Positions 28,931 through 30,061 of a stretch of DNA of 64,000 nucleotides are shown in pieces. This DNA is from an uncultured Acidobacteriota bacterium (lineage in GTDB: Bacteria; Acidobacteriota; Vicinamibacteria; Vicinamibacterales; JAKQTR01). The notes below the pieces were generated by a model that saw only the letters and a program-made list of their open reading frames with translations, had not been told where the DNA came from and made no database searches. Each line of letters starts with the position of its first letter. The first letter of the stretch is position 1. A program made the translations under genes and the position numbers. The stretch lies in NCBI GenBank assembly GCA_963809475.1, contig CAWEJS010000001.1:1050125-1114124 (forward strand). Reading direction: 5' to 3'.

Positions 28931-30061
28931 ATGGACGCATCCGCCATCGTGAGCGCGCTGAACCGGCTCGTGCCGGAATCGGGCGCCGAGGCCGTGCCGG
29001 CGATTGACCAGCCCACCGTAGTCGTTCCCGCCGATCGCCTCGTTCCCGTGTGCCGCGCGCTGCGAGACGACCCGGCGCTCCGCTTCACGGCGCTCGTCGA
29101 CATCGTCGGGGTGGACCAGCAGCCGCGGGAGCCGCGGTTCGAGGTCAACTACACCCTCGTGGCACCGGACGTGCCGGCCCGGCTCCGCGTCAAGGTGAGG
29201 ACGGGCGGAGACGGGCCTCACGTGCCGTCCGTCACCGGCATCTGGGCGTCGGCCGGTTTCCTGGAGCGCGAGGTCTGGGACTTGTTGGGCGTCGTGTTCG
29301 ACGGTCACCCGGACCTGCGGCGCATCCTCACGGCCGACGACTGGGTCGGGCACCCGCTGCGCAAGGACTACCCGGTGCAGGTCAATCTGCCGGTGAAGAC
29401 CTACGAGCCCATGCAGGTGACGGAGGAGCAGTTCAGGGAACGGATTCGAACAGGACCGGCACGCGCGGGGAGGCCGGGACTGATGCCGGACACCTTCGCC
29501 GAGGTCGTTGCGCGCAGGCTGGACGAGGCGGCTCGCCTGCACGCGGGCTGCCAGTCGGCGGTCGCGCCGGCGGCGGCAGCCGCGGAGGCCATGGTGGCGG
29601 CGATCAGGCGGGGCGGGAAGCTGCTCGCCTGTGGGAACGGCGGCAGCGCGGCGGACGCCCAGCACTTCGCGGCGGAGCTCGTCGGCCGCTTCGAGCGCGA
29701 ACGCCGGGCCATCGCGTCGATTGCCCTGACGACGGACACCTCGATTCTCACCGCGGTCGCCAACGACGACTCCTACGCGCAGGTATTCGCGCGCCAGGTG
29801 GAGGCCCTTGGCGAGGCAGGAGACGTGCTGCTCGGGATCTCGACGAGCGGCGCGTCACCCAGCGTCCTTGCGGCGTTCGCCGCGGCCAGGGCGGGCGGCC
29901 TCACCACGGTGGCCCTGACCGGCCGGGACGGCGGCGCGCTCGGCGCGGCCGCGGACATCCACATCAATGTCCCGGCGGCGTCGACGGCGCGTGCGCAGGA
30001 GGTGCACCGCACGCTGCTGCACGCGATGTGCGAGCTCGTCGAACGGGAGCTGTATGCCTGA
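28931..30061 (+). CDS. nuoC: NADH-quinone oxidoreductase subunit C fused in-frame to D-sedoheptulose-7-phosphate isomerase (NuoC-GmhA)
   Basis: ATG at 28931, 6 nt after the nuoB stop. Residues 1-184 are NuoC-like ([32 protein letters not shown]). There is no stop codon before 30059-30061. Residues 185-376 are a full SIS/GmhA domain. Confidence 0.75.
   Translation: [376 protein letters not shown]
29483..30061 (+). CDS. gmhA: D-sedoheptulose-7-phosphate isomerase module, possibly also translated from an internal ATG
   Basis: 192 codons from ATG 29483, with GGGGAGG 9 nt upstream. [39 protein letters not shown]. The stop overlaps the nuoD start. Confidence 0.45.
   Translation: [192 protein letters not shown]

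Follow-up and report, generated by a model that had tools for sequence, protein, structure and literature searches.

In Escherichia coli, the complex I subunits NuoC and NuoD are joined in one polypeptide, NuoCD, a fusion that is conserved across a large clade and carries an adapted linker. The nqo/nuo operons of Paracoccus denitrificans and Rhodobacter capsulatus instead carry interspersed unidentified reading frames (URFs), mostly of unknown function. GmhA performs the first step of ADP-heptose synthesis, and stand-alone forms are available from Neisseria gonorrhoeae (5I01), Pseudomonas aeruginosa (1X92) and Burkholderia pseudomallei (2X3Y/2XBL). Here we describe a stretch of 64,000 nucleotides (nt) with a G+C content of 70% (hereafter the window), part of contig CAWEJS010000001.1 of an uncultured Acidobacteriota bacterium of the order Vicinamibacterales, in which nuoC reads in frame into a complete gmhA inside the complex I operon. 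Comparison with related loci indicates that the conserved state is a separate gmhA between nuoC and nuoD, and that the fusion in the window is a singleton frameshift, more likely a consensus indel error, a reading in which our confidence is slightly better than even.

An earlier note on this DNA had described a single frame from the ATG at 28931 to the TGA at 30059-30061, and this frame is indeed uninterrupted over 376 codons. The first part, claimed to be NuoC-like over residues 1-184, matches Pfam Complex1_30kDa (PF00329) at residues 30-150 (E 2.7e-43, 147.9 bits, cutoff 22.5) and scores 133.1 bits against TIGR01961 NuoC_fam, above the cutoff of 122.45; moreover, it is encoded after nuoB, with the order nuoA-nuoB-nuoC present in the window as well as in all relatives. 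The second part, proposed as a full-length SIS-domain phosphoheptose isomerase at residues 185-376, is matched by SIS_2 and by GmhA models at residues 193-374. The profile searches of the 376-residue product that the note had suggested thus recovered both modules, Complex1_30kDa and SIS/GmhA, and the SIS identity stands. Similarly, we recovered the in-frame ATG at 29483 with GGGGAGG 9 nt upstream, and the overlap of the 3' end of the frame with the start of nuoD (ATGCCTGA, 30054-30061).

The relatives of the locus present a different junction. The comparison was based on about 49 loci, made up of 8 GTDB species genomes, 5 ENA/NCBI/Logan loci and 36 JGI/ENA metagenome contigs; 34 JGI loci together with L003 and L004 constitute the nearest clade of the window. 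When GTDB was scanned with a single genome for each species, 8 Acidobacteriota/Vicinamibacterales genomes were retrieved, matching the whole or nearly whole 376-residue query at 49-74% identity, and six-frame translation of these revealed the order nuoB-nuoC-gmhA-nuoD in 8/8, with nuoC ending at its own stop and gmhA as a separate open reading frame (ORF). The same layout was found at the loci of 5 database GmhA homologs, where gene calling separated NuoC of 182-224 residues from SIS proteins of 207-214 residues. A metagenome scan with a junction query added the 36 contigs, 60-87% identical across the junction, in which nuoC stops 40-41 codons past an RKDYP motif and gmhA starts in the -1 frame (34 contigs scored by script; L106 and L114 by hand). 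In all, nuoC and gmhA are fused in 0 of the approximately 49 relatives. A stop or frameshift at the junction in all relatives was among the observations that, according to the earlier note, would refute its proposal, and nuoC has its own stop in every one of them; the in-frame junction is not conserved. The relative closest to the window reaches 87% amino-acid identity at best, and an exact look-up found the 376-residue product absent from public assemblies.

Both borders of gmhA are compact. A stop/start overlap between nuoC and gmhA of the T(G/A)ATG or (G/A/T)TGA type occurs in 41 of 46 relatives, and in 36/36 scored loci of the nearest clade, while the 8-nt overlap of the gmhA stop with the nuoD start is shared by the window and 31 of 39 scorable relatives (nearest clade, 29/29 scorable). 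Roughly 10 nt ahead of the gmhA start codon, most of the nearest clade also has a Shine-Dalgarno (SD)-like G-rich element, mostly CGGGGAG; in this clade the nuoD ATG is likewise preceded by an element, of the GGGAG type. More distant members have short spacers in place of the overlaps. Considering that RKDYP and nuoD are 732 or 735 nt apart in the nearest clade, as opposed to about 200 nt in more distant NuoC loci, the gmhA insert is specific to the clade.

The difference between the window and its relatives can be traced to a single base. From RKDYP to a GNGGS motif the window measures 273 nt versus 272 or 275 nt in the nearest clade, and from RKDYP to GPQHP of nuoD it measures, by implication, 733 nt versus 732 or 735 nt. 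In an ungapped DNA comparison anchored at RKDYP, the relatives read GAGCAGTTC CGG GAG AGC ATC CAG AAC GAT CGC CGC GTG CGG GGA GAC nnn GGC TGA TG, and the window reads GAGCAGTTC AGG GAA CGG ATT C GAA CAG GAC CGG CAC GCG CGG GGA GGC CGG GAC TGA TG. Hence, exactly one base is extra, a T in ATTC at 29444-29447 where the relatives have ATC, 12 codons ahead of the ancestral stop. Deleting this T gives ATC GAA CAG GAC CGG CAC GCG CGG GGA GGC CGG GAC TGA, or I-E-Q-D-R-H-A-R-G-G-R-D-stop, in which EQDRHARGGRD is encoded by the ancestral frame at 29448-29480 and followed by TGA at 29481-29483. The restored tail equals those of the relatives in length and has their common DRxxRG pattern (compare ERDRYQRGGRKS in L001 and NDRRVRGDTG in L087, each followed by the stop), and the out-of-frame TGA lies 40 codons after RKDYP, at the same place as the stop of the relatives. 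This TGA is thus the ancestral stop of nuoC, which the additional T some 36 nt before it has moved into another frame.

Codon usage leads to the same conclusion. In confident genes of the window, which served as reference, G+C content at third codon positions (GC3) is 0.94, and the log-odds per codon is +0.63 for the coding frame, compared to -1.2 and -1.4 for the other two. Read in the fusion frame, the 12 codons of the linker yield -1.19 per codon and a GC3 of 0.58, and include the locally rare CGA, ACA, GCA and GGA, whereas the same bases in the ancestral frame yield -0.02 and 0.82. The linker segment has the history of a nuoC 3' terminus, in a gene of its own, and the shift is therefore evolutionarily instantaneous, be it an indel introduced by sequencing or assembly or a mutation of very recent date. 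Taken together, the fusion is a singleton +1 frameshift and no evolved architecture.

The gmhA gene itself appears intact. The 192-residue module is approximately 50-60% identical, over its full length, to the solved GmhAs 5i01, 1x92 and 2xbl (E 1e-53 to 4e-50), and its SIS fold is supported by 99 bits for Pfam SIS_2 (cutoff 27) and 26 bits for SIS (cutoff 25). The GmhA models PRK13936 (about 230-233.3 bits, E 1e-68, equivalog cutoff 276) and TIGR00441 (about 194-196.5 bits, E 1e-57, equivalog cutoff 209.45) are by far the best-scoring families, and scores that fall slightly short of the cutoffs are to be expected in a distant phylum. Counted from the Met at 29483, the module has H61, E65, Q172, H180, S55, D95, T121, S122 and S125, which show 98-100% conservation among 44 homologs embedded in the operon and align with the same residues of the solved GmhAs. 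H61, E65, Q172 and H180 are the zinc/catalytic residues of the E. coli and B. pseudomallei enzymes, with the numbers of E. coli, and the Ser/Thr sugar-phosphate loop is also kept. Pairwise ratios of nonsynonymous to synonymous substitution rates (dN/dS) are about 0.23 for gmhA, 0.23 for nuoC and 0.15 for nuoD. The residues and the genomic context are consistent with a catalytically competent isomerase. A DiaA-like function was rejected, as the score for NF008138 (153.5 bits, cutoff 352) is below those for the GmhA models.

Further genes of the pathway are encoded in the window, including hldA, a gmhB-like and an hldC-like gene, and three GT9 glycosyltransferase genes, one of which exceeds the cutoff for heptosyltransferase II. 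Most simply, the gmhA embedded in the nuo operon supplies the isomerase of this ADP-heptose pathway. No second gmhA and no hldD epimerase were seen within the 64 kb. The genes for ADP-heptose and the lipopolysaccharide (LPS) core are arranged in two clusters, with the kinase hldA and the adenylyltransferase hldC separate, 30 kb apart, and no fused hldE.

Proteins resembling the fusion do exist in public databases. A word-indexed search returned 10 proteins with both Pfam domains (P0004, P0005, P0006, P0010, P0011, P0015, P0016, P0095, P0097 and P0100), all from ENA assemblies, in which the reading frame is lost in places and later regained. When 1.84 billion representative proteins were searched exhaustively with HMMER, none of the 150 best matches was a clean NuoC-GmhA fusion; those that span the junction, P0095, P0128, P0130 and P0215, are all visibly corrupted by frameshifts. 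In the contigs inspected for two such proteins (L163 and L164), nuoD is in pieces, and nuoF is run together with nuoH, as in L163, or missing. We consequently rejected the database "NuoC+SIS" proteins (13 with P0128, P0130 and P0215) as independent support, on account of their multiple internal frameshifts. NuoC-GmhA is thus, as far as these entries tell, not an established protein architecture; it recurs as an artifact because nuoC and gmhA abut. Proteins combining NuoB, NuoC and SIS are also present in public metagenome protein sets and are likewise artifacts of assemblies rich in indels, and other matches in two stretches are SIS-SIS tandems (double GmhA-like) of 340-434 residues (P0134, P0138, P0139, P0153 and P0156), unrelated to complex I.

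Among the explanations offered by the earlier note, a genuine bifunctional or moonlighting subunit finds no support in the 0 of about 49 fused relatives, the off-frame codon usage of the linker and the ancestral stop that is still present. Such an evolved NuoC-GmhA would anchor to the complex I peripheral arm either an enzyme for LPS precursors or an accessory domain of SIS fold, and the idea has its attractions: gmhA is kept exactly between nuoC and nuoD, the products of which are in mutual contact and form one chain in E. coli, the overlaps on both of its sides are maintained in the nearest clade, and fusions of adjacent genes often mark physical partners. However, it is absent from every relative, its database counterparts are frameshift artifacts, the relic stop and the linker codons show that the junction evolved as two genes, and a plain enzyme accounts for the catalytic residues as well as for the pathway context, making it very improbable. 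One may also ask if the placement of gmhA is not neutral, with the SIS protein physically associating with the NuoC/NuoD module and the read-through representing a genuine "Rosetta-stone" fusion of partners. If true, the SIS protein would help complex I as an accessory or assembly factor or would connect respiration with the synthesis of the envelope, yet we find this very unlikely. By comparison, a gene captured in the operon and started internally, also among the proposals of the note, describes the state conserved throughout the clade, a separate gmhA with conserved SD element and ATG and overlaps on both sides.

As for the origin of the extra base in this ancestrally two-gene junction, an error appears somewhat more likely than a real mutation. 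The base is unique among the approximately 49 relatives, it affects two housekeeping functions, and in other assemblies indel errors have repeatedly produced the same pseudo-fusion. Where a conserved housekeeping gene seems frameshifted, a sequencing error is usually to blame. The suggestion in the note that an assembly error removed a stop codon comes near the proximate cause, but the stop is still there, only out of frame through the insertion of one base. Several observations nevertheless weigh against an error. The insertion (T to TT) is outside a long homopolymer, that is, not in the classic context of long-read errors, and no frameshift was seen in about 45 other window genes with full-length Pfam matches, so that the assembly looks clean and the chance that the base is real goes up. 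On the side of the enzyme, the GmhA equivalog scores just below their NCBIfam cutoffs count against the overall reading. A screen of the window for further frameshifts by GC3 and frame plots, a crude method, gave none that were convincing. The clean genes and the absence of a long homopolymer equally favor a real, very recent mutation, with a fusion that is tolerated rather than adaptive, in which the last 11 residues of NuoC would be swapped for a 12-residue frameshifted linker and a full-length GmhA, perhaps alongside some free GmhA started at 29483 with the help of the retained SD element. Nowhere is NuoC less conserved than in its tail, so function may survive, and the SD element and ATG of gmhA are intact. 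Against such a mutation speak its uniqueness among the relatives, the lack of time for the codon usage of the linker to adapt, and the quaternary structure: GmhA is an obligate tetramer, with 4 chains in most solved entries, for which a tether to a single-copy complex I subunit would be awkward. We therefore consider a real mutation possible but doubtful. Finally, a real extra base could be bypassed by programmed +1 frameshifting at AUU-CGA, with NuoC as the main product and the fusion as a minor one, since the very rare CGA (the rarest Arg codon of the window, 6/5892 reference codons) would occupy the A site right after the inserted base, where a +1 shift restores the conserved tail and stop. 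The site is however not conserved, the base simply missing in the relatives, no stimulatory SD element is found at the spacing known from prfB, re-pairing of tRNA-Ile on UUC would be poor, and nothing else supports such recoding, which strikes us as extremely improbable.

Returning to the separate gmhA as the ordinary state of this Vicinamibacterales-type lineage, an ordinary enzyme with intact catalytic residues is encoded between nuoC and nuoD. Ribosomes that complete nuoC would terminate at its T(G/A)A, which shares bases with the start codon of gmhA, and the SD-like CGGGGAG about 10 nt upstream would assist the start of gmhA. At the other end, gmhA stops within an overlap with the nuoD ATG (ATGNCTGA), which would couple translation onward to nuoD. 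Free GmhA would then be made at the level of the nuo operon and feed the first ADP-heptose step of LPS inner-core synthesis. With the sequence of the window taken at face value, the end of nuoC would not be terminated, giving NuoC(1-172)-linker-GmhA, although the retained SD element and ATG may still yield some free GmhA. We infer that gmhA is co-transcribed with nuoA-N and that its translation is coupled. A scan of 27600-31400 for sigma-70 promoters and intrinsic terminators detected no internal promoter and nothing above shuffled expectation, and is uninformative for this phylum.

The operon spans 28026-40243 with the order nuoA-B-C-(gmhA)-D-E-F-H-J-K-L-M-N, and the same gene set is found in L081, L082, L165 and L166 (coordinates of all features are listed in Table 1). 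No nuoG was found between nuoF and nuoH (33144 to 33234), no nuoI between nuoH and nuoJ (34256 and 34249), and neither elsewhere in the 64 kb; both must be encoded elsewhere in the genome. Just upstream of nuoA, at 19413-27869, is a sugar-nucleotide/glycan cluster comprising a DegT-type aminotransferase, an RmlD-like reductase, a GDP-mannose 4,6-dehydratase-type enzyme, a UDP-glucose/GDP-mannose dehydrogenase, a methyltransferase and a GT1 glycosyltransferase; a glycosyltransferase is also located upstream of nuoA in L082, L165 and L166, and a methyltransferase in L082 and L166. Directly downstream of nuoN, on the opposite strand, lies selA (selenocysteine synthase; 40452-41906). Neither tRNA-Sec nor an obvious selenoprotein gene was found in the window, the only tRNAs of which are tRNA-Leu(GAG) at 5014-5100 and tRNA-Gln(TTG) at 52860-52935.

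Table 1. Positions of the complex I, gmhA and LPS-related features in the window.
Feature	Position	Strand	Basis
LPS-core/ADP-heptose cluster: waaA, lpxK, lipid A acyltransferase, heptosyltransferase II-like GT9, gmhB, hldC, heptosyltransferase I-like GT9	8465-14962	+	Pfam, NCBIfam
gmhB (GmhB-like phosphatase)	12910-13467	+	Pfam/NCBIfam
hldC (HldC-like adenylyltransferase)	13427-13942	+	Pfam/NCBIfam
nuoA	28026-28385	+	ORF; position before nuoB matches Oxidored_q4 genes of relatives
nuoB	28440-28925	+	ORF; Oxidored_q6 gene at same position in relatives
nuoC part still in ancestral frame (NuoC residues 1-172)	28931-29446	+	Complex1_30kDa, TIGR01961
Frameshift site TT, one T extra (ATTC here, ATC in relatives)	29445-29446	+	Ungapped DNA comparison, MAFFT alignment
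12-codon out-of-frame linker	29447-29482	+	Codon log-odds, comparison with NuoC tails of relatives
SD-like GGGGAGG for gmhA, within nuoC 3' end	29467-29473	+	SD-like element kept in most of nearest clade
Relic nuoC stop TGA, +1 frame, overlapping gmhA ATG as TGATG	29481-29483	+	Overlap found in relatives
gmhA, predicted sedoheptulose-7-phosphate isomerase, 192 residues, separate gene ancestrally	29483-30061	+	Similarity to solved GmhAs, conserved residues
nuoD, start overlapping gmhA stop by 8 nt (ATGCCTGA)	30054-31235	+	ORF
Rest of operon: nuoE, F, H, J, K, L, M, N	31250-40243	+	ORFs, Pfam; relatives same set
nuoF	31855-33144	+	ORF, Pfam
nuoH	33234-34256	+	ORF, Pfam
nuoJ	34249-34773	+	ORF, Pfam
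nuoK	34778-35077	+	ORF, Pfam
nuoL	35071-37197	+	ORF, Pfam
nuoM	37188-38792	+	ORF, Pfam
nuoN	~38789-40243	+	ORF, Pfam
hldA (heptose-7-phosphate kinase)	45392-46330	-	TIGR02198 rfaE_dom_I, 364 bits (cutoff 345)
hldA, O-antigen ligase-like gene, third GT9 heptosyltransferase	45392-48609	-	TIGR02198; Wzy_C; Glyco_transf_9

The fusion is accordingly of little importance as a protein, and annotators should flag a frameshift rather than name a new bifunctional subunit. The "NuoC+SIS" entries in metagenome protein databases, being frameshift artifacts, could likewise mislead surveys of domain architecture. What appears novel is the clade-wide embedding of an intact gmhA between nuoC and nuoD, which is apparently undescribed: the searchable literature contained no description of gmhA within a nuo operon or complex I, nor relevant work on Vicinamibacter NADH dehydrogenase and lipopolysaccharide. 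In a widespread acidobacterial order of soil and sediment, the first ADP-heptose enzyme for the LPS inner core is hard-wired into the complex I operon, and given this embedding, gmhA expression should follow that of nuo. The nuoC-gmhA-nuoD order also offers a cheap synteny marker for the clade, and hints, though this is unlikely, at a coupling of respiration to envelope synthesis.

Compared to the stand-alone GmhAs of N. gonorrhoeae, P. aeruginosa and B. pseudomallei, the gene in the window is alike in length, identity, catalytic residues and the presence of downstream pathway genes, but is located between nuoC and nuoD with overlaps and not in an LPS cluster or a yraN-diaA-type locus; only in the window sequence is it read through from nuoC. 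DiaA, the DnaA initiator-associating protein and a paralog of GmhA, has the same SIS fold and a similar length (PDB matches 2yva and 4u6n, E about 2e-43), whereas the gene described here keeps the GmhA catalytic residues and scores far below the DiaA cutoff. The E. coli-type NuoCD (PRK11742) resembles the fusion in that the C-terminus of NuoC continues into the polypeptide of the next operon gene. The partner in the window is however an unrelated sugar isomerase, joined by a singleton frameshift that recurs in none of the relatives, with nuoD as a separate ORF, and the match to PRK11742 involves NuoC residues only (85 bits, cutoff 840); it belongs to neither the NuoCD nor the NuoBCD type. The embedding has a parallel in the URFs of P. 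denitrificans and R. capsulatus, unrelated genes co-transcribed within an otherwise canonical complex I operon. Those are found at other positions, whereas the passenger in the Vicinamibacterales can be identified as a housekeeping enzyme, has its specific place between nuoC and nuoD and is probably translationally coupled to them.

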